IMG/VR virus record: IMGVR_UViG_3300045049_000056
Span: 1-64,000 of that record
DNA from: a virus
Taxonomy: Duplodnaviria; Heunggongvirae; Uroviricota; Caudoviricetes
Reading direction: 5' to 3' (one strand)
Length of the DNA: 64,000 nucleotides
Shown here: in pieces, positions 4,829 through 61,601 of the stretch
Layout of the letters: each line of letters begins with the position of its first letter
Numbering within the stretch: position 1 is the stretch's first letter
The notes under the pieces: model-generated
Database searches by the model: none
What the model saw: only the letters and a program-made list of their open reading frames with translations
Told to the model about the DNA's origin: nothing
Position numbers and translations under genes: made by a program

Positions 4829-4857
4829 TTGACACGGATGAAGGATGTGTGTAGTAT
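4829..4857 (+). promoter_or_regulatory. rightward early promoter, class A (TTGACACGGA-N-TAGTAT)
   Basis: TTGACA 4829-4834, 17-nt spacer, TAGTAT 4852-4857, ~30 nt before gene 4890. Confidence 0.6.
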
Positions 4858-4889
4858 GAGCCTCGTTGAACAAACTTAAGGAGGTTGCG

Positions 4890-5198
4890 ATGAAAGAGTA
4901 TCCTGTTGGCAGCGTGTGCGTGATCGTGCAAGGTAATGGGAAAATCTTAGAAGATTTTGTGGGGATGGAATGCGTTGTAGAGGAGGGTATATACTCACGC
5001 GATGGTACAACTCCATGCGGAGAGCGTGTAACTGTTGTAGGATATGTCGTGAGCGCGAGCGGTTATCCAAATGGTCTGTTGGTAGAGCATGTAAATCTTA
5101 AGCTCAAGAAGTTCCCCGGACAGCTTCAATCATGGCTTGCAGAGAAGATAGACAAGCTGACGCAGCCTAACCCAAACATTGTACTGGAGGAAGTATGA
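4890..5198 (+). CDS. hypothetical protein (102 aa)
   Basis: Track ORF starts at TTG 4866. AAGGAGG RBS then ATG at 4890. Confidence 0.6.
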   Translation: MKEYPVGSVCVIVQGNGKILEDFVGMECVVEEGIYSRDGTTPCGERVTVVGYVVSASGYPNGLLVEHVNLKLKKFPGQLQSWLAEKIDKLTQPNPNIVLEEV

Positions 5199-5440
5199 CC
5201 AAAGAAGACTTGCTAGGTTTTTGCTGGTGCAGAGACTTCTCTTACACTGACTTGATGGCTGTTGCAAAGCTAGACAATTCTCCTGACATTCCTACCGCAG
5301 AAGAATACTACGCCTATGTGCAGAAGGAAAACCGCATTATGATGGATACGTTCACTAAAGCATACGTAGACGACACCCGCACACCAGAAGAGAAAGCTCG
5401 TCAGGAGATGTCCATAACTTTTGAGGACTGCACGCGATGA
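5195..5440 (+). CDS. hypothetical protein (81 aa)
   Basis: GGAGGAAG RBS. ATGA overlap with the upstream gene. Confidence 0.55.
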   Translation: MTKEDLLGFCWCRDFSYTDLMAVAKLDNSPDIPTAEEYYAYVQKENRIMMDTFTKAYVDDTRTPEEKARQEMSITFEDCTR

Positions 5441-5685
5441 AACTTGAAATCAATCTTAACGAAACTGTAGAAGTTGTGCTGACCAAGGAAGGCGCTAAGA
5501 TTTATAATAGGCGTTATGATGATTTAAAGTTTGTTAAGAACTTTGACATCAAACAGTTCAAAGAAGGTGACACGCTTAGGACTCAGATTTGGAGTCTGAT
5601 GCAAGATTTTGGTCCACATATCCGTCTTGGGTGTACGCCACCTTTTGAAGGTCTTGTAATGACGATAGTAAAGGACATCTCATGA
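5437..5685 (+). CDS. hypothetical protein (82 aa)
   Basis: ATGA-coupled ORF. Confidence 0.55.
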   Translation: MKLEINLNETVEVVLTKEGAKIYNRRYDDLKFVKNFDIKQFKEGDTLRTQIWSLMQDFGPHIRLGCTPPFEGLVMTIVKDIS

Positions 5686-5951
5686 CACCCCTGAAACCAT
5701 GCAAAGTGGCCTGTGAAAACTGGTGGTGGAATCGTAAGCTGCAATTGTTTCTCAACGAGCGCTACGGTGTTAAATGGGGAATTCCCGGAGAGTTTAAACC
5801 TTTCAACACCCGTCGGCGTGGTGAGTTCTTGTTTATCGTGCAAAATCCTAACAATCTTACGTGGTGGTTCAATTGGGGCACGGAGCGGGATTTTGCCAAT
5901 GCAGACTTGCCAGAGTTCACAGCTAAGCAGCTTATTGAGGAGTTGTCTTGA
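5682..5951 (+). CDS. hypothetical Trp-rich protein (89 aa)
   Basis: ATGA-coupled ORF. Confidence 0.55.
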   Translation: MTPLKPCKVACENWWWNRKLQLFLNERYGVKWGIPGEFKPFNTRRRGEFLFIVQNPNNLTWWFNWGTERDFANADLPEFTAKQLIEELS

Positions 5952-8231: not shown

Positions 8232-9257
8232 ATGATCGAAGTATTTGGCAAAGGGTCTGTTGCACGCCTCTTGAAGGACAGTGAATCTCCTTCTGGGCAT
8301 CGCCTGACTACAATGGAAATTGAAGTGAGCCGTATTGTATGGTGCGAATTCCTCACACATGGAATGCTTGCACGTAACGCTCATAGTTCCCGTGCCATCC
8401 CGTTTGATAAGATGGTTGAGCAGCTTAAGGGAAAGCCTGTGCGCTTTGGGCAGGCTAATAAGGGCATGCAGGATAAGGGTGAAGAGTTTGATGCACCTGT
8501 TAAGGGACACAAATATGAACCTCGTTTTTACACTGACGACGGACAAGAATGGCACACCCCTCAACAAGCATGGGAACTCGCAAAACGAGATGCTATTAAA
8601 TGGTCGCGACGGTTCTACGAAGCTGGCTACCACAAACAAGTGTACAATCGTCTGACAGAGCCGTTCCAGATGATTAAAGCTGTTGTGTCGGCTACAGAGT
8701 GGGACAACTACTATTGGCTTCGTGATGATGTTGCTGCTGATCCTACGTTGCACGATCTGGCGTCTACTATGCGCAAGGCCCACGAGCAGAGTGTTCCGCA
8801 ACTGTTGCAGCCGGGCGAGTGGCATTTGCCTTATATTGAAGATTCCCGTGACAGTAACGGAAATATCATATACTGGATTGATGGCGAAAATGGCGATCCG
8901 CATGTTCTTACGCTTGAAGAAGCTATCAAAGTATCCTCTGCACGTACTGGCGCAGTAAGCTTCCGCAACACTGATTACAATCTTGAGCGCTCTCTTGGTG
9001 TGTACGAGCGTCTTGTTGGTGATGATCGTAAGCATGCTAGTGCTATGCAACATCAGGCAACTCCGATGCAAGAGTCAAAAGGAAAAATGTTTATCGACGA
9101 TGTGGACCAATGGGTGAATCATCCGTACAGCCCTCTTACGTGGGAACCCGGTATCAGTCATGCAGATCGTGATGGCAACTTGTGGAGTGCTCAGTTCTGC
9201 GGCTGGATCATGCACCGTAAGCTTATTTCGGGTGAGAATTACAAAGCTGCAAAATAG
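8232..9257 (+). CDS. hypothetical protein (341 aa), no family recognised
   Basis: Long ORF with a GAGGAG-like RBS. Confidence 0.6.
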   Translation: MIEVFGKGSVARLLKDSESPSGHRLTTMEIEVSRIVWCEFLTHGMLARNAHSSRAIPFDKMVEQLKGKPVRFGQANKGMQDKGEEFDAPVKGHKYEPRFYTDDGQEWHTPQQAWELAKRDAIKWSRRFYEAGYHKQVYNRLTEPFQMIKAVVSATEWDNYYWLRDDVAADPTLHDLASTMRKAHEQSVPQLLQPGEWHLPYIEDSRDSNGNIIYWIDGENGDPHVLTLEEAIKVSSARTGAVSFRNTDYNLERSLGVYERLVGDDRKHASAMQHQATPMQESKGKMFIDDVDQWVNHPYSPLTWEPGISHADRDGNLWSAQFCGWIMHRKLISGENYKAAK

Positions 9258-9260: not shown

Positions 9261-9290
9261 TTGACAAGCTTGCTCAACCTCTGCCATACT
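9261..9290 (+). promoter_or_regulatory. promoter, class B-like (TTGACAAGCTTGCT-N-CATACT)
   Basis: TTGACA 9261-9266, 18-nt spacer, CATACT 9285-9290, upstream of gene 9344. Confidence 0.4.
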
Positions 9291-9343
9291 ACGCCTGCGC
9301 TGAACAACAGCGCTTCTACAAACAACACAAGAAAGGTAATACA

Positions 9344-9676
9344 ATGAAGAAAATTATCTCCGCACTGGTCATGTCCCTGATGGCTTCGGCAGCATTTGCA
9401 CAAGCTGGCTATCCTGTCTCCGCTACGGCTGTTGCTACGGATGACGTGTCGGCTCCGTCTGTGCAAGCTGACGACGTTTCGTCCCCGTACATTGCTGCGA
9501 GTGTGGGAACGCCCAATTGCTGCGCGGTGTCTGTTTCGGCAAATGCTTTGGCAGGTCGTGTCTCGATTCCGCAAAAGGAAGACGACTCGGACAGCTTTGC
9601 AATGGCTGGCTTGGGCTTCGGCCTGTTTGGTTTGGTGGGCGTGAGCAAGCTGGCTCGTCGGAAGAAACAGAAGTAA
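9344..9676 (+). CDS. secreted protein with GlyGly-CTERM-like C-terminal anchor (110 aa)
   Basis: Signal peptide MKKIISALVMSLMASAAFA|QA. Internal DDVSxPS repeats. C-terminus AMAGLGFGLFGLVGVSKLARRKKQK is a Gly-rich hydrophobic helix with a basic tail. Confidence 0.6.
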   Translation: MKKIISALVMSLMASAAFAQAGYPVSATAVATDDVSAPSVQADDVSSPYIAASVGTPNCCAVSVSANALAGRVSIPQKEDDSDSFAMAGLGFGLFGLVGVSKLARRKKQK

Positions 9677-14582: not shown

Positions 14583-14585
14583 GAT

Positions 14586-14614
14586 TTGACAAGATTGTTA
14601 TTCTGATGTATAAT
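14586..14614 (+). promoter_or_regulatory. consensus promoter, class B (TTGACAAGATTGTTA-N-TATAAT)
   Basis: TTGACA 14586-14591, 17-nt spacer, TATAAT 14609-14614. Perfect sigma70 consensus. Confidence 0.65.
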
Positions 14615-14636
14615 TAAAGCTTTAAGGAATAGTAAT

Positions 14637-14828
14637 ATGAGTTTTGATTATCAGAATAGTACTCTTGAAGAGTTGGCAGAGTACATTGAAACCGCAACGC
14701 CTCAAGTTATTTCCACCATGATTCGCTACTACGCCAACAAGGGTAATGTGGATATGGAGAATAAGATTCGTACGGCCCGTAAGATTGTTGTAAAACGTCG
14801 AGCACTGGCCCGATTGGAGGATATGTAA
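14637..14828 (+). CDS. hypothetical protein (63 aa)
   Basis: AAGGAATAGTAAT then ATG. Confidence 0.5.
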   Translation: MSFDYQNSTLEELAEYIETATPQVISTMIRYYANKGNVDMENKIRTARKIVVKRRALARLEDM

Positions 14829-15445
14829 TGTCGGGTAAGAGTGCAGATAAATACGGGCAGGACTGGCATGCGAATTTCGTATATGACCCATCCAGCGCAA
14901 GCGGAATCGTTTGGAAGGTTGATAAATTTCGCGGCAACAGTAAATCGCCATACGTTTTTAGAAAAGCTGGAGAACAGGCCGGGAACTTATCAAAGACAGG
15001 GTACTGGACGGTTTCTTTGTATCACGGCAATGGAAGGTCATTACCGTATCAGGTGCACAGAATCATCTACGAAATGCATCATGGACCTATTACAGATAAC
15101 ACGTTAGTAATTGACCACATTGACGGGTGCAAAACTAATAACTGCATTGAAAATTTAAGGCTGGTGAAGCGTAGTGATAATACTCGTAACACAGTCAAGT
15201 ATTCTAACAACTCTACAGGTGTTGTCGGAGTGTATCTGGATGGTAAGAGTGACAAGAACGGCAATGTGTATTGGTACTATAAGGCGGCTTGCATGAATTT
15301 AGATGGTGGTCAGTCAACTAAAGCGTTCTCTATCAATAAATACGGCGAACAGGAAGCCTTCCGTCTAGCCTGCGAATACCGCGCCAAGATGATTGCAGAG
15401 CTAAACGAACAAGGTGCGGGCTACACTGAACGCCACGGCACCTAA
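14828..15445 (+). CDS. free-standing HNH (HNH_3) + AP2-domain homing endonuclease
   Basis: VIDHIDGCKTNNCIENLRLVKRSDNTRN is an HNH_3 signature. STGVVGVYLD...YWYYKA...FRLACEYRAKMIAEL is an AP2-like DNA-binding domain. Confidence 0.8.
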   Translation: MSGKSADKYGQDWHANFVYDPSSASGIVWKVDKFRGNSKSPYVFRKAGEQAGNLSKTGYWTVSLYHGNGRSLPYQVHRIIYEMHHGPITDNTLVIDHIDGCKTNNCIENLRLVKRSDNTRNTVKYSNNSTGVVGVYLDGKSDKNGNVYWYYKAACMNLDGGQSTKAFSINKYGEQEAFRLACEYRAKMIAELNEQGAGYTERHGT

Positions 15446-15453
15446 AATTCTAG

Positions 15454-15482
15454 TTGACGAGCGGCACAAACTTCTGTATTCT
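15454..15482 (+). promoter_or_regulatory. promoter (TTGACG-N17-TATTCT)
   Basis: Upstream of gene 15514 with AAGGAGGAAAT RBS. Confidence 0.45.
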
Positions 15483-15513
15483 TGTGCCTGTTGAACAATA
15501 TTAAGGAGGAAAT

Positions 15514-21038: not shown

Positions 21039-21206
21039 ATGATGAATTGCCCAAATTGTAAACGTCCACAGGGGCACTACTCAAACATAGAGTATAAATG
21101 CCTTGACACGGGAAAGTTGGTTAATCAGGATTACTGGTTTTGCCACTTCGATGCTTACAAAGTTTATGATGACGAAGAAGATTATTCGCCACAAACCAAC
21201 TCGTGA
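21039..21206 (+). CDS. putative zinc-ribbon protein (55 aa; CPNC...C...C.H)
   Basis: ATG at 21039. Four Cys/His in ribbon spacing. Overlaps a TTGACACGG promoter-like site and the next ORF. Confidence 0.35.
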   Translation: MMNCPNCKRPQGHYSNIEYKCLDTGKLVNQDYWFCHFDAYKVYDDEEDYSPQTNS

Positions 21207-21558
21207 GCAGAAAGCGGCCACACACCCAGCTTCAGACGACGATTATGCCCGCCTCGCAGCAGTTGTCGTAGAAGCCATCACGCTTAAGCACAAGGATATC
21301 GTTCTTAAGGTGCCTTACTTCATCATATTTGATGAGGGATTCCCAAAAGGCATCCTCGTGAAGCGTGATGCGCAATACAATTGGTACAGGGCGAAAGTGT
21401 TCAAGCTCGCCGACTATTTGCACTCTAAAGGCCATATGCCAGCAGATGCAAAGGGAACAGTGAAGAGTATGCGCGTGGTGAACAACTTGTGGGGCGAGAT
21501 TGATAGGCTTCTTATGAATCCTGAAAATCTTGTTGACACGGAGATAGATTTAGGGTAG
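21166..21558 (+). CDS. hypothetical protein (130 aa)
   Basis: The track ORF 21103 starts on the TTG of a TTGACA hexamer. The first ATG is 21166. Weak RBS. Confidence 0.4.
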   Translation: MMTKKIIRHKPTREQKAATHPASDDDYARLAAVVVEAITLKHKDIVLKVPYFIIFDEGFPKGILVKRDAQYNWYRAKVFKLADYLHSKGHMPADAKGTVKSMRVVNNLWGEIDRLLMNPENLVDTEIDLG

Positions 21559-21561
21559 AAT
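21533..21561 (+). promoter_or_regulatory. promoter, class A (TTGACACGGA-N-TAGAAT)
   Basis: TTGACA 21533-21538, 17-nt spacer, TAGAAT 21556-21561. Gene 21588 follows. Confidence 0.6.
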
Positions 21562-21587: not shown

Positions 21588-21860
21588 ATGACTGAAGAAG
21601 ATGTAGCAAAGAAAAAGTGGAATGCGCAAGCAGACCAGTACAACCAGTGGGACGAACTCGGTAAGGATGAGAAAGACGAATTGATTGCAAAAGAAACGAC
21701 AGCTAAGCAACCTACCATGACCCTAGACGAAGTGCTGCAAGAAATCGCTCGTCTGCAATCTGTCATCGCTCGCTCTGAAGACGATGCGCTTGAGAGCCGT
21801 GAAGCGTTGCAGAAGATGTATGATTTGCGGGATAAGATGTCTGAGCTTGATAATGAATGA
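21588..21860 (+). CDS. hypothetical coiled-coil protein (90 aa)
   Basis: GAGGAGAAAAA then ATG. Confidence 0.55.
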   Translation: MTEEDVAKKKWNAQADQYNQWDELGKDEKDELIAKETTAKQPTMTLDEVLQEIARLQSVIARSEDDALESREALQKMYDLRDKMSELDNE

Positions 21861-28637: not shown

Positions 28638-29096
28638 ATGATTGAATTGAAAATTGAAAAAGTTGAGCAAGACGCCGATGTCCGGATGCCGGAATATTCC
28701 ACTGAAGGTGCAGCGTGCTTCGACATTAAAGCGTACATGCCGGGAGCTTCTGTTGTTGTAGATTCTACTGCGATTAACGGTGTTATCATTCCTACTGGCC
28801 TTAAGTTTGAAGTTCCTGAAGGTTATGCCATGATGATTTATTCCCGCAGTGGTCAAGGCTTTAACAGCAACACTCGTCTTAGCAATTGTGTGGGCGTTAT
28901 TGATGCTGACTACCGTGGTGAAGTTAAAGTGAAGCTTGTGTATGACGGTGGCAACAACACGCCAATTACCGTCAAGCACGGTGATAAGATTGCACAAGCG
29001 ATGCTGATTCCTGTACCTAAAGTCGAACTCAAACTGGTGAAAGACCTGAGCAAGACTAAGCGTGGCGCAAAAGGCTTTGGGAGTACTGGCGTATGA
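28638..29096 (+). CDS. dut: dUTPase
   Basis: AAGGAGAAAGT then ATG. Motifs AACFDIKA, SRSGQG, GVIDADYRGEVKV and a C-terminal Gly-rich motif 5. Confidence 0.85.
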   Translation: MIELKIEKVEQDADVRMPEYSTEGAACFDIKAYMPGASVVVDSTAINGVIIPTGLKFEVPEGYAMMIYSRSGQGFNSNTRLSNCVGVIDADYRGEVKVKLVYDGGNNTPITVKHGDKIAQAMLIPVPKVELKLVKDLSKTKRGAKGFGSTGV

Positions 29097-29716
29097 AAGT
29101 TATTTCCTGCTACGACCTCCTGCTTGCTGACCCTCTCAAGCACATGAACATCTTCGATCTTGTGCATCTAGACAACGCTGAAGTTGTGTACGACGTTCTA
29201 GAAACACTGGGTATGGATGTGGCGAAGCCAGTACATATTTATGCTGCACAGCACCGAACTCTTGCTGGCGATGTTAAAATTGGATACTTGTTCGCTGGCG
29301 AGCTAGATACATCGCGAAGTTTCCTCAAAGGGAAGTATGCGCATCCTGAAGACCTGTTAATTGCGGCCAGCATCCGTGATAAGAGCCTCTATGAGCACCT
29401 ACACGAAATGAGCACAACTTGTACAGCTTACGGTGGGGTGATGGCTCTAGATGATGGGATTCCACCACGGCCCAGCCCTGACGAAAGGTTCTCTCTGAAG
29501 AGTGCGAAGGCTTATGAGAAAGAGTATGTTTCTGAGGAGTCTAAGATTCTTGCAGAGATTACTCAGCTTGAGGATATTCTGTTTGATATTCGCGGTGAGC
29601 AATTTAATCCTGATGGATCGGTGAAGACGTTGGAAGAGTACACAACTCCGAAGCCTGCTGAAAAATTAAGAAAAAAATATAAGAAACGCAAAGGTAAAAG
29701 TGATGAGAGTGTTTGA
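29093..29716 (+). CDS. hypothetical protein (207 aa) with Lys-rich C-terminus
   Basis: ATGA overlap. Confidence 0.55.
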   Translation: MKVISCYDLLLADPLKHMNIFDLVHLDNAEVVYDVLETLGMDVAKPVHIYAAQHRTLAGDVKIGYLFAGELDTSRSFLKGKYAHPEDLLIAASIRDKSLYEHLHEMSTTCTAYGGVMALDDGIPPRPSPDERFSLKSAKAYEKEYVSEESKILAEITQLEDILFDIRGEQFNPDGSVKTLEEYTTPKPAEKLRKKYKKRKGKSDESV

Positions 29717-29867: not shown

Positions 29868-32088
29868 GACGGTGAAGAAGCGGAATGGTGAAGTTGTTCC
29901 GTTCGATCCTGAAAAACTAACGCATTGGGCCAAATGGGCCGGTGATATTGGTGTCGATTGGTTTGCCATTGTTGGCGAGGCTTACAAGAAGTGCCCCGAC
30001 GAATGCACTACGAATGACCTTCAGAACGCAATGATTCAAGCATGCATGGATTTTGAAGATACTCCGCACATGTTGATGGCTGGCCGTTTATTGATGGGCG
30101 ACGTGTACAAACAGGCATTTGGTGGGCACAATAAGATTCCTACAGTGCCTCAAATGGCAGTTGCCATGATGACACTTGGTCTGTGGGAAAACATGGATTA
30201 CACGATTGATGAGCTTGACGAGGCCGAAGCATTCATCAACCACGACCGTGATCTTAATAGTGTTTACTCCGTTGTGAATCAAATCACCACTAAGTATGCT
30301 ATCAAGGATATTGAGACTAATCGTGTGTTGGAGTCGCCTGCGTTCGTGTGGATGCGTATGGCTCTTGGCGTGTGCAAAGAGGAGCCTCGTGAAACTCGTA
30401 TGCAGAGTGTCAAAGAGTATTACGAAGACTTTGCAACTGGGCGCATCAATGCACCTACACCGAACATTAACAATCTTGGAACTCCTAAGCGAAGCTATGC
30501 TTCTTGCTGCGTGTACAAGAGCAATGATGAGCTAGGTAGCCTTGCTGCTGGCGATCACATCGCTACTATTATGACGGCTGCTAGTGCTGGTATTGGTGGT
30601 ATGCTGATGACTCGCAGCAAAGGTGATGGCGTTCGTAAGAATACTATTCGCCACGGTGGCAAGCTGCCGTACTACAATGCTCAAGCGAGTGCCGTGAATG
30701 CTAACCTGCAAGGTGGTCGTGGTGGTGCGGAGACGATGCACTTCAATGCTCTGGACCCGGAGACGCCGCTGATTCAACGCATGCGACACCCAACCACTGT
30801 TGCATCGAAGGCAGAACGCCGTCTTGATTACAGCTTTGGTTTCCATCCTTTGCTTGCAGAGAAAGCAGCAAAGAACGAACAATGGATGCACATCAGCTAC
30901 AAAGCCAATCCTGACCTGTGGGAAGCTGCGTACCGTGCAGACGGAAGCTTTGAGAAGATGTACACCGAGCATGAGAATAGCAGCAAGCGTAAGAAGTTTG
31001 TGAGTGCTCGTGCAGTTGTGCTAGAGCACCTTCGCATGCAGGAAGAGACTGGTAGGATGTATGAACACAACACGTATGAAATGAATCGCCATACGCCGTT
31101 TAAAGACCCGATCTACAGTAGCAATTTGTGTCAAGAAATTGGCCTGCCAACCCAAGGGTATAAGGATGTTACCGAGTTATATCGGATGGATGACGATGTG
31201 CAGGGTGAGATTGGTTTGTGCAATCTTGGTGCAATTGTCGCTGGACGTGTAACGCCTGAGATGTATGAGGAAGTGGCGTATCGCACGCTGAAGATGGTGG
31301 ACAATGTTATCAGTATCATGGATTATCCGTTCCCACACCTGAAGTACACTGCGCAGGCTCGTCGTTCAGCAGGCATCGGCATTACCAATCTTGCTCATGA
31401 TATGGCAATGAAGGGGCTTCGTTACGATGCGGCTGAAGGTAAGGCGTACATGCACCGGCTTGCGGAGATGCATTCTTACTGGCTCCACAAGGCTTCTGTA
31501 CGGCTGGCCAAGGAGCGTGGTAAGTGCGATTGGTTCCACAAGACGAAGTATGCAGATGGTTGGCTGCCTATTGACACGTATTGCAAACACATCGATAATG
31601 TGACGGATCAACCCTTACTGTGCGATTGGGAAGGGCTGCGCAAGGAGATTGCTGAACATGGCATGCGCAACAGTGTCCTTGAAGCGTATATGCCTGTTGA
31701 GTCGAGCAGTATTGCTGGTAACACGACTAATAGCATTTATCCTGTTCGTGAACTTGTTGTTGTTAAAACGAGCGGTACGAATAAGAATGTGTTTCTTGCA
31801 CCAGATTTGGAAGAGTTGAAAGGTGCCTATCAGCTTGCTTGGACTGTGCCGCGTAAAGATATTACGGAGATGTACGGCATCTTCCAGAAGTTCTGCGGAC
31901 AGGCAATCAGTGCTGACCACTATCGTGCTTTTGCTGAAGGTGAGATTCCGAAGATTAGTGCCACGGAGATGTTTGAAGATTGGTTGTACAGAATTACGTG
32001 CGGCCTTAAGAGTGGCTACTACTCGAATACGAAAGCTGGTTTGACGTTGGAAGAAAGTGAAGCAGAATGTGAGGCTTGCAAACTATGA
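29854..32088 (+). CDS. nrdA: class I ribonucleotide reductase alpha subunit
   Basis: GAAGGGAG then ATG at 29854 (track TTG 29776). N-terminal ATP-cone VKKRNGEVVPFDPEKL. The body, including NLCQEIGLP and a C-terminal Cys pair, is of NrdA type. Confidence 0.85.
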   Translation: MAQIKTVKKRNGEVVPFDPEKLTHWAKWAGDIGVDWFAIVGEAYKKCPDECTTNDLQNAMIQACMDFEDTPHMLMAGRLLMGDVYKQAFGGHNKIPTVPQMAVAMMTLGLWENMDYTIDELDEAEAFINHDRDLNSVYSVVNQITTKYAIKDIETNRVLESPAFVWMRMALGVCKEEPRETRMQSVKEYYEDFATGRINAPTPNINNLGTPKRSYASCCVYKSNDELGSLAAGDHIATIMTAASAGIGGMLMTRSKGDGVRKNTIRHGGKLPYYNAQASAVNANLQGGRGGAETMHFNALDPETPLIQRMRHPTTVASKAERRLDYSFGFHPLLAEKAAKNEQWMHISYKANPDLWEAAYRADGSFEKMYTEHENSSKRKKFVSARAVVLEHLRMQEETGRMYEHNTYEMNRHTPFKDPIYSSNLCQEIGLPTQGYKDVTELYRMDDDVQGEIGLCNLGAIVAGRVTPEMYEEVAYRTLKMVDNVISIMDYPFPHLKYTAQARRSAGIGITNLAHDMAMKGLRYDAAEGKAYMHRLAEMHSYWLHKASVRLAKERGKCDWFHKTKYADGWLPIDTYCKHIDNVTDQPLLCDWEGLRKEIAEHGMRNSVLEAYMPVESSSIAGNTTNSIYPVRELVVVKTSGTNKNVFLAPDLEELKGAYQLAWTVPRKDITEMYGIFQKFCGQAISADHYRAFAEGEIPKISATEMFEDWLYRITCGLKSGYYSNTKAGLTLEESEAECEACKL

Positions 32089-33176: not shown

Positions 33177-33427
33177 GTGTGATTGTGTATAGTAAGAATA
33201 ACTGTCCTGAATGTGCTAAAGCGCTGGCATTGCTGGACGCTAAGGGTGTTGAGTACACTGCTGTGAAAGTTGAAGATACACCGGGGGCGCGGGAGTTTCT
33301 GATGGCTCGCGGACATCGGTCTGTGCCGCAGATTTATGTGAATGGTGAAGATGTGGCTTATGTAGGAGACTATAAGACCCTTGCAAAATTTACCGAGCAT
33401 GAGTTTGAAAGTCTGAAGAAAGAGTAA
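33173..33427 (+). CDS. nrdH: NrdH/glutaredoxin-like redoxin
   Basis: VIVYSKNNCPECAKA is a CPxC thioredoxin-fold motif. ATGA overlap with nrdB. Confidence 0.75.
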   Translation: MSVIVYSKNNCPECAKALALLDAKGVEYTAVKVEDTPGAREFLMARGHRSVPQIYVNGEDVAYVGDYKTLAKFTEHEFESLKKE

Positions 33428-33435
33428 GATTGTTG

Positions 33436-33464
33436 TTGACAGGAAGCGTACTCATCTGTAGAAT
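33436..33464 (+). promoter_or_regulatory. promoter (TTGACA-N17-TAGAAT)
   Basis: TTGACA 33436-33441, TAGAAT 33459-33464, upstream of gene 33511. Confidence 0.6.
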
Positions 33465-34700: not shown

Positions 34701-34745
34701 AAGCGTGAATTACCGGATCAAGGGGTTCACGCTTTTATTTTATTG
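34701..34745. terminator. bidirectional terminator hairpin (8-bp stem AGCGUGAA/UUCACGCU) in the convergent zone
   Basis: Plus strand: hairpin then UUUUAUUUUAUU. Minus strand: same hairpin then UUUCCUU. Extra hairpins lie at 34640-34700. Confidence 0.55.
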
Positions 34746-34780
34746 TGCATCGCAATGAGATGTCAACCCCTTTGAGGTTG

Positions 34781-37895: not shown

Positions 37896-37924
37896 ATTTT
37901 AGCACGTAAAGATGTTATTGTCAA
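37896..37924 (-). promoter_or_regulatory. promoter (TTGACA-N17-TAAAAT) for the distal tail fibre gene
   Basis: Minus-strand -35 at 37924-37919 and -10 at 37901-37896. Confidence 0.55.
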
Positions 37925-42636: not shown

Positions 42637-44121
42637 TTATATTAGTACTTGGACTGTGATTGTGCCCTTAAACCAATTCGGAGAGAGAGAAACCACAACA
42701 CCACTCTTGCCAGCAGAGAGCCCATAACGATTGTGTGTCAATGTAACAGCACAGCCAAGAGAGAGCGAGTTTATGAGTTCTGGCGCTCCAACAAACTCAA
42801 ACACAGATCGAGGAGTGCTCCACATTGCTACACGACGATCTGCTTCAGCAGCAGCATCAGTTCTACGAAGCAGCATTGTGTCAACTTGAGGCGGGGCAGC
42901 GTTAAGCTTGTAATCTGCTTTTGCTGAAAGATTCGTTGACGTCGTAGTCAACCATTCTTGTGCGAACAATTTCTTATGTTCTTCTGGAATGTTCGTAAGC
43001 ATATTATCCTGCACAGTGTAGTTTTTGTCAAATCCCAACTTCACTGACGCTTTCACAAGAGGTCGATTAACAATCTTAAGGGGCCCCAACACAATCTGAT
43101 TCGGGCCGATTGCCACAGGCGTTCCACTGCCACTGATGTTCACTTGAATCAAGCGAAGCAGTCCTGTCCTAGATGTTACCAAGCGTGCGTCAACACTTTT
43201 TGCCAACTCTTGACATGTTGAAAGAACGTTGTCGCCGCTTTCAAGGTACACACCAACAGGTTGCGGGCACGACGTATCAAATGCAGAGAAGTTTGCAAGA
43301 TCAATATCCGCATCTGTATATCTTGTGGCAGACGTACCAAATCCAGTAGCCAAGCGCTTTACAATACCTGCAATCGTATTTACGTAAGTGCCGTTCTTGT
43401 CGCCTTGCACGGAACAAGTAATTGTACCTGCGGAGGCTTGATTAAGCTTGAACGTACCTGTAGAGACATCTTTCGTAATGGCTACAGGAACCCCGTTATC
43501 TCTTACTTCAAGAATATCTTCGATAGCACCATTATGTACTTGATATTGAAGCTGGGTAGGGTCGAGCAACTGAGGTGTAACATTGTGCACCTCGCCAAAT
43601 GTCAACTTAAGAAGATTATCTTTGTTTGTCGGATTTTTGTTCTGAGGGTCGACATCCTTAATCTTCGTCTCTGTCGATGGAGAATTCAATCGTTGCAGCT
43701 TGTCCAGAATTGTCAGCGTCAGAGTTTTTTCATCCTTGCTGTCAATCGTAGCTACAATACCGTTGAAGATCATCTGAAAGTCAGAACGCTTCCAGCTAGG
43801 ATCACCAATCCATGCAATAATCTGTCTGTTATCCCACACATCATCAAGCCAGCTATCCCGCTCCCCGTTGTTGTTAGCAATCTCAAGATCACCACCAGAC
43901 AATCCGCCTTCTCCTTCAATATCCAAACGTTCCGTATATTGTAAACCGGAAGTCAGGACAGGAGAGTATGCTTGGTTGGCAGGGATGTCTGTAGGAGACG
44001 TGATGTACGCCCCCGTAGAAAGATAGCGGGTAATTTCTTGCCCGCCACTTTTCACAGACACCTCAACCAACACAATACGAGGAGCGGCAGGGTTTTTCAG
44101 CCATGCCGCAAAGTCAATCAT
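42637..44121 (-). CDS. distal tail/baseplate-hub protein (494 aa)
   Basis: Immediately downstream of the TMP. AAAGGTA RBS. Confidence 0.6.
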   Translation of the reverse strand: MIDFAAWLKNPAAPRIVLVEVSVKSGGQEITRYLSTGAYITSPTDIPANQAYSPVLTSGLQYTERLDIEGEGGLSGGDLEIANNNGERDSWLDDVWDNRQIIAWIGDPSWKRSDFQMIFNGIVATIDSKDEKTLTLTILDKLQRLNSPSTETKIKDVDPQNKNPTNKDNLLKLTFGEVHNVTPQLLDPTQLQYQVHNGAIEDILEVRDNGVPVAITKDVSTGTFKLNQASAGTITCSVQGDKNGTYVNTIAGIVKRLATGFGTSATRYTDADIDLANFSAFDTSCPQPVGVYLESGDNVLSTCQELAKSVDARLVTSRTGLLRLIQVNISGSGTPVAIGPNQIVLGPLKIVNRPLVKASVKLGFDKNYTVQDNMLTNIPEEHKKLFAQEWLTTTSTNLSAKADYKLNAAPPQVDTMLLRRTDAAAEADRRVAMWSTPRSVFEFVGAPELINSLSLGCAVTLTHNRYGLSAGKSGVVVSLSPNWFKGTITVQVLI

Positions 44122-52102: not shown

Positions 52103-52131
52103 ATTATAGCACTGGCTAACATTCTTGTCAA
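52103..52131 (-). promoter_or_regulatory. consensus promoter, class B (TTGACAAGAATGTTA-N-TATAAT)
   Basis: Minus-strand -35 at 52131-52126, 17-nt spacer, -10 at 52108-52103. Confidence 0.6.
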
Positions 52132-53240: not shown

Positions 53241-55856
53241 TTATACCCAAGTACCCGTACCGCTCGGCGCGATGAACTGACCACCACTCTGCGACTGGAT
53301 TTGGAAGTACAACGTACCTGTCGGGACACCCGTGAATTGGAGAATCTGTGTCCAAGTTTGTGCGTTATCACTCGACACGTACGCCTGAATCGTCGAACCT
53401 GTTCGGCGGAACTCCATCCAGTCGTTTTCTGCCGGAACTCGATTGGACACCAAGGTGCTGCCGCTACCGTAGTACATACCGTAACCTGCTGTACCTGCCA
53501 TCATGTTGCCCGAGTTGTAGCCGTAACCGTCGATAGTCTTCGTAGTTTTGAAGCCAATCATCGGCTTGGTATTTCCACTATTGAGCTGGGCAATCTTGAC
53601 GCGGATCGTACCATCACCAGACAGTCCAAGACCAGTGACACCACCCAGCGGACTATTGTCGTAACCAACACCTGCTGCGGTCTGATAGGAGTACGGTGCG
53701 ACGCTGGAGGTTTCCGTCATGCGCTGGAGAGTTGCGCCATTAAAGCGGATATCCTGTGTGCCGCTTGACGATGCGTTGACAACGTAAGTATTCGACGTTG
53801 CAGTGACACCAGTATTCACGCGGTCACGAACACTCAAGGTACGACCTGCACTGCTTGTAGAAGGCGTCAGACTAAAGGACCATGTACCATTCGCATTGAT
53901 GGTTGCTGCGATCTGCGTCCACACACCTGCTGTGTCATCACTCAAGCGATAATCGAGGTTTGCAGGCTGTACCGTAGTCCATGTACCGGACACGGTGAAC
54001 GGCGTACCAACTGTCTGCGTTGCAATCGTGTTGATCGATAGAGTTTCAGACGAAGCCGCAGATGCCGTGAAAGTAATACTTGTCGGATTAGTCAGGCTAC
54101 CATTGTTGGTTGTGCTGATCGTGATCGTGCCAGCAGCAGCGGCCGTATAAGTGAACGTGGCTGTCGGGCTGGCCGTTGTGAGCGAAACACTAGTCGGAGA
54201 GAACGTACCACCTGCACCGCCATCCGAAGGAGTTACAACGACTGTGCCTGTAATATTGGAGCCTACAGGCGATACACCGACAGTGAAGTTACTAGAAGCC
54301 ACACCCGCTGTACCTGTTGTCGGGCCAGTCAACGTAGTAGCTGTTGCTGTAGACGGAACGTTATTGCCGATGGATTGTGTCGTACTAACCATCTGATTGC
54401 CTGCCAAGTCACGCAAGCCGTTTGTTCCCGGTGCTGTGTACGTAAGCGTGCGAGCAGCTTCACCATAAACAAACGCAGGTGTAACAGAAACGTAGATGTA
54501 ATTACCTTGGACACGTACTCCAGTAGCAGTATGGCCCGTAAGCGTAAATGCCGAAGCAGCAGGAACATAGTTCGGATCAACAGGCTCAGATACCGACCAA
54601 GCAATTGTAGAGGCATCCGATGCGTACACAATTGCAGCACGAGTTACAGGGGCAGTTGTGTCAACGCCCTGCGACAACATTGCTTGAGGAATCACCGATG
54701 CCATATTGGAGCCTAGCAAACGTGCACCAGCGGCATTGTAATGGAGGTTGTCACCCATCATATAGCCGGACAACCCCGGAGTATAAGCACAACGGGGGAA
54801 TTCTGCTGCAACAGTACGATGAGCATTGTCAACAGATTGATAACCCGGATGTCCAGAGGTATCAGCTACGTTTTCAGCTACAAGACCTCCAATAACAAAC
54901 CAAGCATTGGACGCAGTAGGCACACGGGTACGAATGGCTTGGATAAGAGTCTTCATCGCGCCGGTGTAATTCAGTTGCAGGTTTGAGCCATAGTAATCTG
55001 CGTCACCTTCGCCCTGATGCCATGCGATTCCAACAACACGCGATGCCGGATAAATCTTCTGTGCGGCTGTAACAGCGAGAGTGGCTTGATTGATAGCATT
55101 GTCGAGCAGAACGCTACCTGTTGCGCCAAGAGCTACGCCGCTGCCTGCGGTGCCGTCTCCGGGGAACCATTCTCGTGTGTCTGCAAACAGTTTAGTTGCA
55201 CTACGTGCGGCAGGAACCAGAAGAACTTTACGATTGCTTGGGCACATACCCGCATACGTGCGGCCGAGCCAAGAGCCGGGACCAAGACCCGCACCATTGC
55301 CCATTGTTGGCAAAGACACTTGTGCGAAATAATGACGTAGAGGATCAACAGCTTGCGTAATCTTCTGATACGTAGTCGCATCATTCGGGTAGCTACCGAA
55401 CATGTAGACTCGGGAATCTGCGAGGTCGAGCAACGGAGTGTTAACGTCCATGCCAACCATGTTCGATTGACCAAGCAAAAGAATAATGTCAAAGCCGGGA
55501 TCGTACGGATTAATCAACCCCATATTCAACAGTGCAGCAGGGGCACTATTAAACACTGTCGGCGTACCTGCAATGAAATTGACGGCATTACCGTTATTGG
55601 AGCTATTAATAATCTTCGTGCACGTAATAACTGTTGTGCTCGTAATCGTGAAGAAAGCACTTTGCCAATTACCAGCACCGTCATCTACGATGAACGGAAC
55701 ATTGATATCGCCAACAGCAATTTCATTAGCACTAATGGCTTGTGCGAGAGTTCGGCAGCCTGTCAAAGCTGCGCCCATAGTAATTGTAGCGTTCACAGAC
55801 AGAGTTGTAGAACTCATGCTGGACGCTGTAACCTTTAAGCGATCTGCAAATTTCAT
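53241..55856 (-). CDS. large structural protein with SASA/SGNH (sialate O-acetylesterase-like) esterase domain, Ig-like repeats and C-terminal lectin-like region (871 aa)
   Basis: FDIILLLGQSNMVGM is the GQSN hallmark of SASA/DUF303 esterases. Thr/Ser/Gly-rich tandem beta-repeats follow. AGGTGA RBS. Confidence 0.65.
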   Translation of the reverse strand: MKFADRLKVTASSMSSTTLSVNATITMGAALTGCRTLAQAISANEIAVGDINVPFIVDDGAGNWQSAFFTITSTTVITCTKIINSSNNGNAVNFIAGTPTVFNSAPAALLNMGLINPYDPGFDIILLLGQSNMVGMDVNTPLLDLADSRVYMFGSYPNDATTYQKITQAVDPLRHYFAQVSLPTMGNGAGLGPGSWLGRTYAGMCPSNRKVLLVPAARSATKLFADTREWFPGDGTAGSGVALGATGSVLLDNAINQATLAVTAAQKIYPASRVVGIAWHQGEGDADYYGSNLQLNYTGAMKTLIQAIRTRVPTASNAWFVIGGLVAENVADTSGHPGYQSVDNAHRTVAAEFPRCAYTPGLSGYMMGDNLHYNAAGARLLGSNMASVIPQAMLSQGVDTTAPVTRAAIVYASDASTIAWSVSEPVDPNYVPAASAFTLTGHTATGVRVQGNYIYVSVTPAFVYGEAARTLTYTAPGTNGLRDLAGNQMVSTTQSIGNNVPSTATATTLTGPTTGTAGVASSNFTVGVSPVGSNITGTVVVTPSDGGAGGTFSPTSVSLTTASPTATFTYTAAAAGTITISTTNNGSLTNPTSITFTASAASSETLSINTIATQTVGTPFTVSGTWTTVQPANLDYRLSDDTAGVWTQIAATINANGTWSFSLTPSTSSAGRTLSVRDRVNTGVTATSNTYVVNASSSGTQDIRFNGATLQRMTETSSVAPYSYQTAAGVGYDNSPLGGVTGLGLSGDGTIRVKIAQLNSGNTKPMIGFKTTKTIDGYGYNSGNMMAGTAGYGMYYGSGSTLVSNRVPAENDWMEFRRTGSTIQAYVSSDNAQTWTQILQFTGVPTGTLYFQIQSQSGGQFIAPSGTGTWV

Positions 55857-58685: not shown

Positions 58686-59207
58686 TTATTTAGCGTTTTT
58701 AGGCGCGTACTCTGCTTCAAGTTTGGCTGCAAGGCGCGTAACCATGTCAGCTTCAGCAGGCGTCTCAACAACCGCATCAACACCCTGCTCAACGAACTGT
58801 TCCGACTTCGCTTCCGTAGCCATGTTAGCCGACAGAGTGCCAACCATTGCCTCAAAAACTTTATCGTCCAGCCCTTCAAATGCTGTCAGCAATTCGACAG
58901 CTTTTGCATCGCCAACGACTTCTTGCAGCTTCGTCAGACGCGCATTCGTTTTTTCTTTAGCAGCCTCAGCAACTGCATCAGCTTTTTCTTTTTCTACAGC
59001 AGCCAGAGCAGCTTCAGCAGCTTGCAGCTTTTCAGTTGTTTGTGCCAGCGTTTCCGAAACCTGAGCAAAGCTCGACTTCAGTTCAGCCAGTTCAGCAGCG
59101 ATTGCCTCAACATTCGGCACTTCGGCCTGATTTGCTTCTACGATTTCGGTTGTCATTTCGACGCTAACCCCTTCTTGTTTAAAAAATTTCTGTAGGCTTT
59201 TCAGCAT
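58686..59207 (-). CDS. scaffolding protein (173 aa)
   Basis: Ala/Glu/Lys-rich coiled coil between the protease and capsid genes. Confidence 0.65.
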   Translation of the reverse strand: MLKSLQKFFKQEGVSVEMTTEIVEANQAEVPNVEAIAAELAELKSSFAQVSETLAQTTEKLQAAEAALAAVEKEKADAVAEAAKEKTNARLTKLQEVVGDAKAVELLTAFEGLDDKVFEAMVGTLSANMATEAKSEQFVEQGVDAVVETPAEADMVTRLAAKLEAEYAPKNAK

Positions 59208-60049
59208 TACTTTGCTCCTTTAGTCTGTTCGGCAAGATAAGCCGAGAACTGATTGTGATCCATTACTTTATTAACCAACCCTGCCTCCAAAGCAGCTTCC
59301 GCATGAAACATCTTCGCATCCATTGCGAGAATTGTGTCCACGTCAATTCCCGTGTAATTGCTGACATGTTGGGCGAATTGATTTCCTAGCCGAGTGACTT
59401 CATCTTGAATTTCAGCCAAGAACTCTTTAGAGAAACTGCCATCTTCTGCGAAAGGCGTCTTGCCCGGTGTGCTGGAGATATAAATTGGTTTTAGGCCAGC
59501 TTGTTCAAATGCTTTAGAACGGTCCAAAAGTGCCACCACGCAGCCAACACTCCCTGTGCTCGCGTCAGGATGAATAACCACTTCATCGGCAGCCACGTTA
59601 AGGGCAAGAGACGCGGACGCAGAGATTGTGTCGATATACGCGTACCATTTGACACCGGCTTGGTCGCACATTGCACGAAGATCGTTTGCAGTGGAAAAGC
59701 AATGCGATGCTTGACCACCGGGACTCGAATGCATAGTGATGAGTGTCGTGATACCATCATCGATAAGCGCTTGCGCTTGAGCTAGAATACCTTCATAGCT
59801 GCAACCACTAACCTCTCCACACGCACCAACAACGGGACGATAAGTGAGCGCCCCATCAATATCAATCTGACCAATTTTGTCAAGACGTTGAGGTGCAGGT
59901 TGATCTGCTTTTTGAGCGTCTACTTTGACAGAGAAGCTTGCGGAATTACGATAGTTGATATATTCGAGGATAGCGGTAGCTGCCTCTGCTTGGATTAAAT
60001 GCGGGACGTTATACAAACTCTCCGCGAATCTAAAAAGGCTATGTGCCAT
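59207..60049 (-). CDS. prohead protease (S49/ClpP-like, lambda gpC-like)
   Basis: ITMHSSPGGQ and the wider architecture are typical of S49/SppA-type prohead proteases. Lies after the portal. Confidence 0.7.
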   Translation of the reverse strand: MAHSLFRFAESLYNVPHLIQAEAATAILEYINYRNSASFSVKVDAQKADQPAPQRLDKIGQIDIDGALTYRPVVGACGEVSGCSYEGILAQAQALIDDGITTLITMHSSPGGQASHCFSTANDLRAMCDQAGVKWYAYIDTISASASLALNVAADEVVIHPDASTGSVGCVVALLDRSKAFEQAGLKPIYISSTPGKTPFAEDGSFSKEFLAEIQDEVTRLGNQFAQHVSNYTGIDVDTILAMDAKMFHAEAALEAGLVNKVMDHNQFSAYLAEQTKGAK

Positions 60050-60051
60050 CT

Positions 60052-61545
60052 CTATCCTTTATTGTCGTTGTTGTTTGCCGACCTATCTTGGCCACTCGAC
60101 TTACCACCAATCTTTGAAGTGCCATCACCAGTGGTTCCGGGAGCCATACCTTCACCAGAATTAGAAGTATTCGTCGTCAAAGCTTTTTCATCAACAGGTT
60201 CATCATCAGGACGTGGGCGAGCGCCTGCGGCTTTACGAACGATATTCATAATCTCGCGATCACGTTCAATCAGACCTGTCGAAGCTGTACGCTGCAAGAA
60301 TTTCGACAATTCCTCAAGCGAAACAGAACTAATATCAGACGGAACAAATTTCGGCATCACCTCGTCAGTCCAGCCGTTTAGCTTATAAATCGAAGGAATC
60401 AAGTCGCTGTTAAGTACGCTTGCAATCTCATTCAACCTGTGGCTCATCGCAAGAGCTAGCACGTTCGTATCGCCATCGCTAAGGGAAAAACTGCCGGGAT
60501 TTGTACCTGCTTTGAGGATATCCACTGCAAGAGCAGAAAGAATCTCATCTTGATAGCGTCGAATAACTGTGTCGATGTTAGCCCCGTTCATACCTTTCTT
60601 TTCCATAAGAGAGATATCGAACATATCTTTCTTAGATTCAGGATCAATGAACGTAGGAAAAACGATGCAATCCGCAGTGCCATTCTTGATATTCGTGCCA
60701 ATTTGTTTGGCAGACTCATATACAGCTTTTTGTCCGTCGTCAGCATCTTCCGACATGAACGCAGCAGGGATACGAATCAAGGGGATGCCTGTAGCCTCCT
60801 TAGCAATGCCAAGAATTTCCGTGTCCTTTAGCATTGACATCTGCTTCCAACTGAGATACACCCCCTTCAAGATAGAATGCCCCATCGGGTTTCCACGGGT
60901 AGCATCAGCAGAGAACAGCAAGAATTTTTCACGAGGGATGCGAATCAAACCGTTCTTATCCGCCGCTGAGAGGTATAGATAGCTGTTTTGTAGACTGGAG
61001 ATACCTTGGTAGACAGCAAGCAAATCGCGCCCATCTTCAGAAAACTCCCAACGAGCGATAGACTCTTGAGGGCGTGGTGCAATTTTCTTCAAGCCAATGA
61101 TGCCGTCGTTGTAGCGCGAGCCATTCTTACGAAGCCTGCGGCGGAAGACTTTTTCCTGCACACTGTAGCCGTAAGGAAGATATTCGATAACATCAGCAAT
61201 GAAATCGTCCCATGTGTTTTCCATATCGGTCATCATAGACTCGATAATCTTAGCTCGTTGGGTTTCTTGGTCAGACGCTCCTACAGGGGCTTCCACATGC
61301 CATTTGACACGAGACAGCAGCATTTTGTAGGCGTTTAATGCGGATGCAATGATTGCCGTGTTCCGCATCTCGTTGATAGTGCGGAAGAATCTTGGAAATT
61401 GGAATGCGGGATTTAGCTCCTCGTAGATGTGCCCATTAGACACTCGCAAGGCTGTAAACCCGACTTCTCCGAGGCTTACGCGGGGAATTACCGCACCATC
61501 ATCGGCAGCAAGAGCCGACTTATTTTCAGGCTTCTTTTTTGCCAT
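60052..61545 (-). CDS. portal protein (497 aa)
   Basis: Lies between the terminase and protease genes. Size is typical for a lambda-B-type portal. Confidence 0.75.
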   Translation of the reverse strand: MAKKKPENKSALAADDGAVIPRVSLGEVGFTALRVSNGHIYEELNPAFQFPRFFRTINEMRNTAIIASALNAYKMLLSRVKWHVEAPVGASDQETQRAKIIESMMTDMENTWDDFIADVIEYLPYGYSVQEKVFRRRLRKNGSRYNDGIIGLKKIAPRPQESIARWEFSEDGRDLLAVYQGISSLQNSYLYLSAADKNGLIRIPREKFLLFSADATRGNPMGHSILKGVYLSWKQMSMLKDTEILGIAKEATGIPLIRIPAAFMSEDADDGQKAVYESAKQIGTNIKNGTADCIVFPTFIDPESKKDMFDISLMEKKGMNGANIDTVIRRYQDEILSALAVDILKAGTNPGSFSLSDGDTNVLALAMSHRLNEIASVLNSDLIPSIYKLNGWTDEVMPKFVPSDISSVSLEELSKFLQRTASTGLIERDREIMNIVRKAAGARPRPDDEPVDEKALTTNTSNSGEGMAPGTTGDGTSKIGGKSSGQDRSANNNDNKG

Positions 61546-61572
61546 TAGTGCTCCTTTTATTTACTGAAACGG

Positions 61573-61601
61573 ATAATAACATGAGGTAACAATCTTGTCA
61601 A
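61573..61601 (-). promoter_or_regulatory. promoter, class B (TTGACAAGATTGTTA-N-TATTAT)
   Basis: Minus-strand -35 at 61601-61596, 17-nt spacer, -10 at 61578-61573, upstream of the portal gene. Confidence 0.55.

Follow-up and report, generated by a model that had tools for sequence, protein, structure and literature searches.

The stretch of DNA considered here (the window, 64 kb in length) is part of a phage-like genome and is organized in three transcription blocks, a leftward block of small open reading frames (ORFs), a rightward early and replication block and a leftward structural block (Table 1). Subject of this analysis are the sigma70-type promoters in these blocks and the bases which some of them share beyond the -35 and -10 hexamers. 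The early block carries genes for a T7-type primase-helicase, an HNH endonuclease, a DNA polymerase (53% identical to its phiEcoM-GJ1 counterpart), exonucleases, a dUTPase and both subunits of ribonucleotide reductase. Products of the late block are a split large terminase, the portal protein (approximately 40% identical to that of Pseudomonas KPP10/PAK_P3-like and Otagovirus-like phages), a protease, decoration and major head proteins, neck, tail terminator, major tail and further tail proteins. The portal and capsid proteins of the window were found exactly on one JGI/IMG contig of 88,355 bp, and the relatives in IMG/VR are 88–92 kb large; the window represents approximately 70% of an uncultured phage genome of about 88 kb. 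The phage is of the virulent tailed type and is known solely from metagenomes. Intergenic DNA accounts for 5.8% of the window, and the majority of the candidate promoters fall there.

Nine sites in the window match the sigma70 consensus in at least 11 of the 12 hexamer positions, where first-order Markov simulations yield 0.8 ± 1.05. All nine are oriented in the same direction as the local gene block. Given this enrichment and co-orientation with genes, the sites are very probably real promoters. Including the weaker intergenic sites at 4829, 4793, 2530, 9261 and 15454, about a dozen plausible promoters are present in the window. A preliminary description had distinguished two classes among them, class A in front of early genes and class B mainly in front of portal and head-tail genes, both with conserved extensions of 10–15 nucleotides (nt) that were read as suggesting binding sites of a phage or host regulator. 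The hexamers and spacers given there were borne out when coordinates and sequences were reread. A Shine-Dalgarno sequence with start codon lies 20–60 nt downstream of every class A and class B site. A TG at -15/-14 (extended -10) is found at 52131, 61601, 37924 and 9261 and is retained in the orthologs of these four promoters, while it is absent from 14586, 4829 and 21533.

GenBank phages gave no megablast match to a 7-kb portion of the window, and relatives were therefore retrieved via proteins, namely the portal (L001–L003), the DNA polymerase (L125–L143) and a tail protein of 1860 amino acids (aa; L145–L153). Orthologous promoters were placed by their neighbouring genes; the motif itself was not used for locating them.

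The class B sequence TTGACAAGAWTGTTA is present in exact form at 14586 (+), 52117–52131 (-) and 61587–61601 (-). The gene contexts are as described before: the portal gene follows 61601, the Neck1/tail-completion, tail-terminator and major-tail genes lie downstream of 52131, and 14586 adjoins the stop codon of the primase-helicase gene and heads a 63-aa ORF and an HNH_3/AP2 homing endonuclease gene. Directly after the -35 hexamer, nine contiguous bases are common to two of these promoters and eight of the nine recur in the third. Such a match is expected by chance with approximately 4e-6 per pair or 3.5e-4 across 91 promoter pairs; the sharing within class B is beyond chance and statistically solid. 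Promoters 14586 and 61601 have 17 identical nucleotides, even though other promoters at the 14586 position differ. An exact scan of IMG/VR with the 15-mer returned at least 119 unrelated single hits, which is about chance level for a collection of this size and is uninformative.

Only a part of the shared sequence is conserved among the orthologs. The 61601 promoter reads TTGACAAGATTGTTACC..TGtTATTAT in the window and TTGACAAGA(A/T)TCTTAC..TGgTACTAT in L001–L003. In the neck/tail promoter, the sequence past TTGACAAGA is ATGTTAGCC, TTGTTGCTC or TAGTGCACC, and TGCTATAAT is found in all cases. Promoter 52131 is conserved as a whole, together with its leader, in L145, L152, L146 and L148–L153, with AGA and TGCTATAAT invariant. 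In L152 both are nearly unchanged, while the adjacent 1860-aa tail protein is just 48% identical, which points to selection and not merely to recent copying. At the place behind the helicase gene, L129 has the same sequence as the window, L130–L132, L128 and L133 read TTGACAAGAAGGTGGT(C/T)TTAC and L134 reads TTGACAAGATTCAATAAG; past AGA(W), the other promoters at this position continue with AGGTGGTCTTAC or TTCAATAAG. AGA is invariant in the orthologs of the portal promoter (4/4) and of the neck/tail promoter (6/6). Among distinct promoter-like sites of the window and its relatives, AGA follows TTGACA in 17 of 79, compared to 13 of 407 TTGACA sequences lacking a -10 element; this 7-fold difference counts related sequences, which correspond to approximately 6–10 independent promoter positions. 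Eleven of the 17 AGA sites also carry TGn, compared to 16 of the 62 remaining promoter-like sites.

The conserved core thus delimited is TTGACA plus AGA(+A/T), supplemented by the TGn extended -10 in the promoters of structural genes. The remainder past AGA(W) varies at the 14586 position and in the neck/tail orthologs and is partly retained at the portal promoter, so that extensions of 10–15 nt did not hold as conserved units. The TGTTA tail of class B changes among the relatives and is lineage-specific. Promoters of the TTGACAAGA type serve portal and neck/tail genes, homing endonucleases and sometimes the tail fibre (L148–L153), and the comparison suggests that TTGACA-AGA(W) is a real promoter subtype across the phage family, which by analogy to T4 would fit a class of late and homing-endonuclease gene (HEG) promoters. 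A full-text literature search for TTGACAAGA gave nothing relevant, and a TTGACA-AGA extension was not found reported.

Site 9261, previously regarded as degenerate class B, does exist with three mismatches but does not belong to this class, its orthologs reading AGA, ACC, GCC or TCC after the hexamer. They retain cTGcCATACT and a leader hairpin. This hairpin (leader 9291–9343, +) survives changes in both arms in the window and in L125, L128, L132 and L141 (GCGCTG...CAGCGC in the window and L132, TGTGCT...AGCACA in L128). ACAAGAAAGG ahead of the start codon of 9344–9676 is likewise conserved.

The class A sequence TTGACACGGA is found in exact form at 4829 and 21533. A third, -35-only copy, TTGACACGGG, is present as well, but starts at 21103 instead of 21104, is located inside an ORF and is not accompanied by a -10 element. 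With up to one mismatch, the class A 10-mer has ten matches in the window compared to 4.5 ± 2.2 in shuffled sequences, where 2 of 100 shuffles reach ten. A match of 4 nt after TTGACA is expected 0.3–0.4 times among approximately 91 promoter pairs. Outside the hexamers, 4829 and 21533 are identical in 22 of 46 positions (13 ± 3.7 for all pairs), and other pairs, such as 15454 with 33436, are as good. CGGA is found in none of the orthologs: those of 21533, recognized by their location behind the DNA polymerase gene and by a common GACGTTTC leader, read CGAG (L125), AAGC (L141), AACG (L142), AAGA (L140) and GGAC (L138), and the ortholog of 4829 in L142 reads AAGC while AAAATTGTtGTTGACA and the -10 region are retained. 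Class A comprises just two copies; its extension is not conserved, and the CGGA match is consistent with chance. The early promoters share, however, an A-rich tract ending in TG directly 5' of the -35 hexamer, at about -46 to -38 (gTAAGAaaattgTG, gTAAGAttgtTG, TGAAAATCTTG), and a TA(G)AAT-G -10; by the tract and the TAGAAT-G form of the -10, 33436 groups with 4829 and 21533. TAAGA, with a distance of 11 nt to the -35 on its 5' side, is present in 5 of 84 promoter-like sites, whereas any given position in the background yields approximately 0.4 per 409 sites. The division into two classes therefore survives in redefined form, as early promoters with UP-like tract and TAGAAT-G versus late and HEG promoters with TTGACA-AGA(W) and usually TGn, while CGGA and TGTTA drop out as class marks.

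Promoters 15454 and 33436 (the latter at 33436–33478, +) represent a third design, absent from the preliminary description, in which the -10 hexamer lies in the loop of a hairpin and no U-tract follows. The fold at 33436 has a free energy of -18.1 kcal/mol (z -3.2). The 15454-type hairpin is found in the same place in ten orthologs with nine different arm sequences. When seven orthologs are aligned with a covariance model, 93.5% of the cells pair and four of seven pairs are compensatory, with a covariation score of 0.42 versus 0.19 in shuffled alignments (0 of 500 shuffles reach 0.42) and 21–53% pairing in slid controls; the pairing result benefits from the fit of this alignment to the structure, while MAFFT and RNAalifold left the arms out of register. 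Class A and class B promoters showed no stem-loop (fold z -0.7 to +0.8). The hairpins at 15454 and 33436 may stop or process read-through transcripts.

Table 1. Promoters, related sites and gene blocks of the window (positions in the window unless preceded by the designation of a relative).
Feature	Position	Strand	Description
Minus-strand small-ORF block	4734 down to 48	-	
Early and replication block	4890-34619	+	
Structural block	64000 down to 34781	-	
Class B promoter	14586..14614	+	TTGACA-AGATTGTTA...-TATAAT, 12/12, 17-nt spacer
Class B promoter	52103..52131	-	TTGACA-AGAATGTTA...-TGc-TATAAT, 12/12, extended -10
Class B promoter	61573..61601	-	TTGACA-AGATTGTTA...-TGt-TATTAT, 11/12, extended -10; portal gene downstream
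Late-block promoter	37896..37924	-	TTGACA-ATAACA..TGc-TAAAAT, 11/12, extended -10; tail-protein gene downstream
Class A promoter	4829..4857	+	TTGACA-CGGA...-TAGTAT, 10/12; rightward half of divergent pair, heads early small-ORF block
Leftward partner of the divergent pair with 4829	4764..4793	-	TTGACA-N18-TATTCT; heads minus-strand block 4734 to 48
Class A promoter	21533..21561	+	TTGACA-CGGA...-TAGAAT, 11/12; overlaps 3' end of upstream ORF, heads gene 21588-21860
Non-promoter match	21103..21112	+	TTGACACGGG, 1 mismatch to class A 10-mer; inside ORF; best -10 CAGGAT (3/6)
Promoter outside class B	9261..9290	+	TTGACA-AGCTTGCTC..TGc-CATACT, 10/12, 18-nt spacer, extended -10; heads small secreted-protein gene 9344-9676
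Hairpin promoter	15454..15503	+	TTGACG-N17-TATTCT; inverted-repeat arms GGCACAA/TTGTGCC enclose -10
Early-type hairpin promoter	33426..33464	+	TTGACA-N17-TAGAAT, 11/12; AAGATTGTT directly 5' of -35; hairpin GACAGGAAGC...GCTTCCTTGTC around -10
Ortholog hairpin promoters	L125:8286, L126:3169, L127:3185, L128:6282, L130:7591, L134:2180, L135:2369, L141:8630, L142:8026		
Inserted cassette	14637..15445	+	63-aa ORF and HNH_3/AP2 homing endonuclease behind 14586 promoter
AAGATTGTT sites	5850, 11552, 14591, 14781, 23520, 23625, 29799, 30469, 33024, 33426, 36842, 42541, 43069, 48385, 51774, 61588	both	

The explanation we favour, with a probability of about 0.62, is that the sites are genuine strong promoters dependent on host sigma70, the shared extra bases of which are of three origins. 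Host sigma70 promoters would break up the transcription units of a virulent phage of approximately 88 kb. A first part of the shared bases would be known polymerase contacts, TGn in the promoters of structural genes and the A-rich UP-like tract ending in TG together with the TAGAAT-G -10 in the early ones. The TGn extended -10 is contacted by sigma region 3.0, and classical extended -10 promoters usually possess weak -35 elements. In the TG at 52131, 61601, 37924 and 9261 and in the A-rich tracts of the early promoters, the window resembles E. coli-type promoters with extended -10 or UP element; in contrast to the classical extended -10 promoters, both elements are at consensus here. A second part would be the short 3' extension of the -35, TTGACA-AGA-(A/T), marking the portal, neck/tail and homing-endonuclease promoters. 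To our knowledge, AGA at -29 to -27 is not described as a polymerase contact element; it might be read by the polymerase itself, through DNA shape or by a further factor. The third part, TGTTA of class B, which coincides with AAGATTGTT, and CGGA of class A, would be lineage-specific, unconserved sequence.

Several points weigh against this explanation. The promoter reading of the phage and its relatives is drawn from sequence. Late genes behind a perfect consensus promoter would need some repression or delay for their timing to be explained, and polymerase contacts do not account for the 17-nt identity of 14586 and 61601, which exceeds chance. The sample behind the AGA statistics is effectively small, as related sequences were counted. 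Finally, the window covers 64 of approximately 88 kb, and a polymerase, sigma or regulator gene could lie in the remaining 24 kb or so.

The most abundant 9-mer of the window, AAGATTGTT, bears on the origin of the class B tail. It is present in 16 copies (0.8 ± 0.8 in dinucleotide shuffles). Genes hold 13 of these; seven run with the gene and specify Lys-Ile-Val throughout, by means of preferred codons, and the other six are antisense, where an in-frame copy reads Asn-Asn-Leu. Shuffling of synonymous codons gives an expectation of 6.8 ± 1.6, and the sister words AAGATTG(C/A/G)T (AAGATTGCT, AAGATTGAT, AAGATTGGT) are also common, as preferred Lys-Ile-Gxx codons predict; a large part of the surplus is thus coding bias. 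Among 17,382 codon triplets, AAG-ATT-GTT in frame ranks 2nd (7 versus 0.62 expected) and its reverse complement AAC-AAT-CTT 21st (4 versus 0.24 expected). Of the relatives, the close ones L125 and L142 likewise have AAGATTGTT as top 9-mer and distant ones do not; in position, the intragenic copies show little conservation among relatives. Since TGTTA is contained in this word, which is spread through genes, the tail of class B is not promoter-specific. Other 9–10-mers reach similar z-scores under the codon null; the over-represented words TGCTGTGTAC, GCCGATTGG, GGAATATTCC and TGCACGGAA are intragenic without conserved flanks and were set aside as multiple-testing noise. A role of AAGATTGTT as Chi site, uptake sequence, nick site or late promoter was rejected in view of its occurrence on both strands, its unconserved positions and the large share explained by preferred Lys-Ile-Val codons. 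What remains is regarded as a moderate surplus at the DNA level and not as operator evidence. Generally, 'extended motifs' taken from a single genome are at risk of being mostly lineage noise and codon-driven words.

No gene for an RNA polymerase or sigma factor was found among the annotated ORFs of the window, the hexamers being canonical, and the early block contains no unannotated ORF of polymerase size. Pfam detected no DNA-binding domain in 30 small early proteins, and PHROGs gave no regulator in the window. With no candidate regulator in the window and extensions that are largely unconserved, the proposal that these are regulator binding sites was not supported. A regulator reading the AGA box is judged unlikely.

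A more specific form of this idea, and the one of the alternatives which fares best, although doubtful, is an operator: a box next to the -35 hexamer, AAGAWT[G/C]TT, would be bound by a phage or host protein that represses or times late and HEG promoters, and the word 5' of the -35 at 33426 as well as the genic copies would be further binding sites. The invariance of AGA(W) in the portal and neck/tail orthologs would fit such a box, and so would the 17 nt common to 14586 and 61601, despite the divergence of other 14586-position promoters. A perfect 9-bp palindrome, AAGA(A/T)TCTT, is present in relatives at the portal promoter (L001–L003) and at the HNH promoter ahead of the terminase ORF (L002:688); dyad symmetry is typical of binding by dimers, but the arms comprise only 4 bp and hence little information, and in the window the palindrome is imperfect (AAGAWTGTT). 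The enrichment of AAGATTGTT at the DNA level, with 16 copies exceeding both the dinucleotide and the synonymous-codon expectation and the two triplets ranking 2nd and 21st, is a further argument for an operator. Against it stand the survival of just AGA(W) at the 14586 position, the unconserved positions of the intragenic copies, the codon-driven frequency of AAGATTGCT, AAGATTGAT and AAGATTGGT, the comparable z-scores of other 9–10-mers and the lack of a DNA-binding domain in the 30 early proteins. AAGAWT is not enriched in intergenic DNA over genes, and no co-variation of promoter box type and genome-wide word was seen in the relatives, where counts are small.

The surroundings of 14586 are relevant to a different origin of the shared bases. 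The module consisting of promoter, 63-aa ORF and HNH gene (14583–15453) lies between two -35 regions that resemble each other in their left flanks, TTCTAAGATTTGACA and TTCTAGTTGACG, and is shared by the window and L129. L130 and L128 have another HNH gene at the same place, behind a TTGACAAGA promoter (TTGACAAGAAGGTGG...), and L138 has a NUMOD4/HNH_3 gene behind TTGACAATA. In L135 the stop codon of the helicase gene abuts the 15454-type promoter, so that the cassette is absent. The site after the primase-helicase gene is a hotspot for homing-endonuclease cassettes, each HNH gene with a consensus promoter of its own. A further promoter, TTGACAAGATTCTTA...TATAAT, heads an HNH gene ahead of the terminase ORF in L002, the product of which belongs to the same PHROG family as that of window ORF 63289–63996. 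T4 homing-endonuclease genes (I-TevI, seg genes) are transcribed from middle or late promoters. The TTGACAAGA promoters directly before the post-helicase HNH genes (window, L129, L130, L128) and before the pre-terminase HNH gene of L002 are similar in this respect; they differ in being of the sigma70 consensus and not of the gp55-dependent late type.

The shared blocks could accordingly result from shared ancestry or gene conversion of small mobile promoter cassettes and not from selection on the extra bases, with -35 regions serving as joints for recombination as has been proposed for PeSLs (promoter-early stem-loops), a possibility we rate slightly below the operator. The bracketed module, absent in L135 and replaced in L130, L128 and L138, and the restriction of the TGTTA tail to this lineage would be in line with it. 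So would the hairpins embedding 15454 and 33436, which correspond to the PeSL design (PMC2839356). PeSLs of the T4-like phages RB49, phi1, PST and nt-1 are near-perfect sigma70 promoters with AT-rich upstream sequence and, on the downstream side, a Shine-Dalgarno element and start codon; the stem-loops are often located between -35 and -10 or over the -10 and have been tied to insertion or replacement of small cassettes (PMC2839356, PMC4122927). Promoters 15454 and 33436 fit this description, as does the promoter-bracketed HNH cassette which is inserted, replaced or absent among relatives. In contrast to PeSLs, class A and B promoters are without a stem-loop, and the stems found here have neither the G-run/C-run consensus nor a U-tract. 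Furthermore, about a dozen promoters are spread over 64 kb here, compared to dozens clustered in hyperplastic regions, and recombination at the promoters of the window is inferred. The cassette origin is weakened by the lack of stem-loops in classes A and B, by the shortness of the shared blocks (15–17 nt, with dissimilar flanks) and by the conservation of AGA across deep divergence, as the nearly identical promoter of L152 illustrates.

It is less probable still that the AAGAW box is the element of a phage transcription factor, located 3' of the -35 in late and HEG promoters and approximately 11 nt 5' of it in early ones, which would switch the host polymerase between temporal classes while the -35 is kept, the surplus of AAGATTGTT representing further sites of the same factor. 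T4 middle promoters combine a MotA box centred at -30 with a sigma70 -10 and are activated by sigma appropriation through AsiA and MotA. The assumed factor would be similar insofar as a temporal class is set by bases around -30 that are recognized jointly by a phage factor and host polymerase; the MotA box of T4 replaces the -35, whereas here a perfect TTGACA is followed by extra bases at its 3' side. Homologues of MotA or AsiA were not detected among the window proteins (PHROGs; Pfam on the 30 early proteins). Pure coincidence, with extensions meaningless beyond the hexamers, holds for the unconserved CGGA of class A, but is refuted for class B by the nine contiguous bases and the conserved, 7-fold enriched AGA, and as a general explanation is very improbable.

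Several observations concern further elements of the window. The ortholog of promoter 37924 in L148–L153 is of the TTGACAAGA type. An intragenic 11/12 match (43003–43031, -) lies within a 494-aa tail gene upstream of a 949-aa gene, is co-oriented and is retained in L145, L146 and L148–L153, possibly just by coding constraint. A second one (31571–31599, +), starting with TTGACACGTA, is co-oriented within the gene of the large ribonucleotide reductase subunit. Antisense TTGACA sites (10/12) are found at 59925 (+) in the protease gene and at 46868 (+) in the 1860-aa tail gene. The distant relative PAK_P3 produces antisense RNAs across its structural genes (PMC10914365); its annotated promoter near the portal gene is antisense and hence was unsuitable for comparison. 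Between the convergent gene blocks, the region 34622–34766 (-) contains a promoter-like site (TTGACA-N18-TAAAAT, 11/12) which is conserved in L147–L153 and is followed by 111 nt folding into four hairpins (-46.5 kcal/mol, z -6.0) with a terminator-like stem and U-run at the end. Rfam gave no significant match for this stretch, which could be either a small RNA gene or a set of stacked bidirectional terminators.

An ORF-free gap of 393 bp beside the large-terminase ORF contains a group I intron at 63017–63234 (-; Rfam RF00028, 85.7 bits, E 2e-20). The terminase ORF (61630–62895, -) matches profile positions 200–617 of 642 only and thus looks like a second exon. Directly upstream of the intron gap, an HNH endonuclease is encoded (63289–63996, -; phrog_374). 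L002 has the same layout, with an HNH gene behind its own TTGACAAGA promoter, a gap of approximately 320 nt and a terminase ORF matching positions 174–618. A 40-mer from the window end, with which a class B promoter before the HNH gene preceding the terminase was sought, was absent from viral and metagenome collections, and exact matches to window proteins led to an 11-kb contig at most. Two ORFs might encode enzymes modifying deoxynucleoside monophosphates, a possible hint of modified DNA: a 341-aa ORF (8232–9257, +) matches the PHROG 'thymidylate synthase' family (E 1e-73) and no Pfam family, and a 207-aa ORF (29093–29716, +) matches another thymidylate-synthase PHROG weakly. The gene of an 871-aa protein with SASA domain (sialate O-acetylesterase-like; 53241–55856, -) sits centrally in the head-neck module; PHROGs gave no match for this protein.

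Among known systems, PAK_P3 (Nankokuvirus) is a precedent for the host-sigma70 explanation favoured here. This phage uses host polymerase only, and of the 75 transcription start sites mapped by ONT-cappable-seq 79% are sigma70-like, structural units included (PMC10914365). The window is similar in its presumed dependence on host polymerase, in many near-consensus promoters in both replication and structural modules and in a distantly homologous structural module (portal approximately 40%). It differs in the lack of nucleotide similarity, in its phiEcoM-GJ1-type replication module and in that its promoters are predicted. If the explanation is correct, the phage would be one more large virulent phage running its whole programme on host RNA polymerase from about a dozen consensus promoters, which is not surprising but would help annotation and offer strong portable promoters. 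Should a factor read TTGACA-AGA(W) together with TGn, this would provide a simple handle on the timing of late genes, which is poorly understood even in PAK_P3-like phages.

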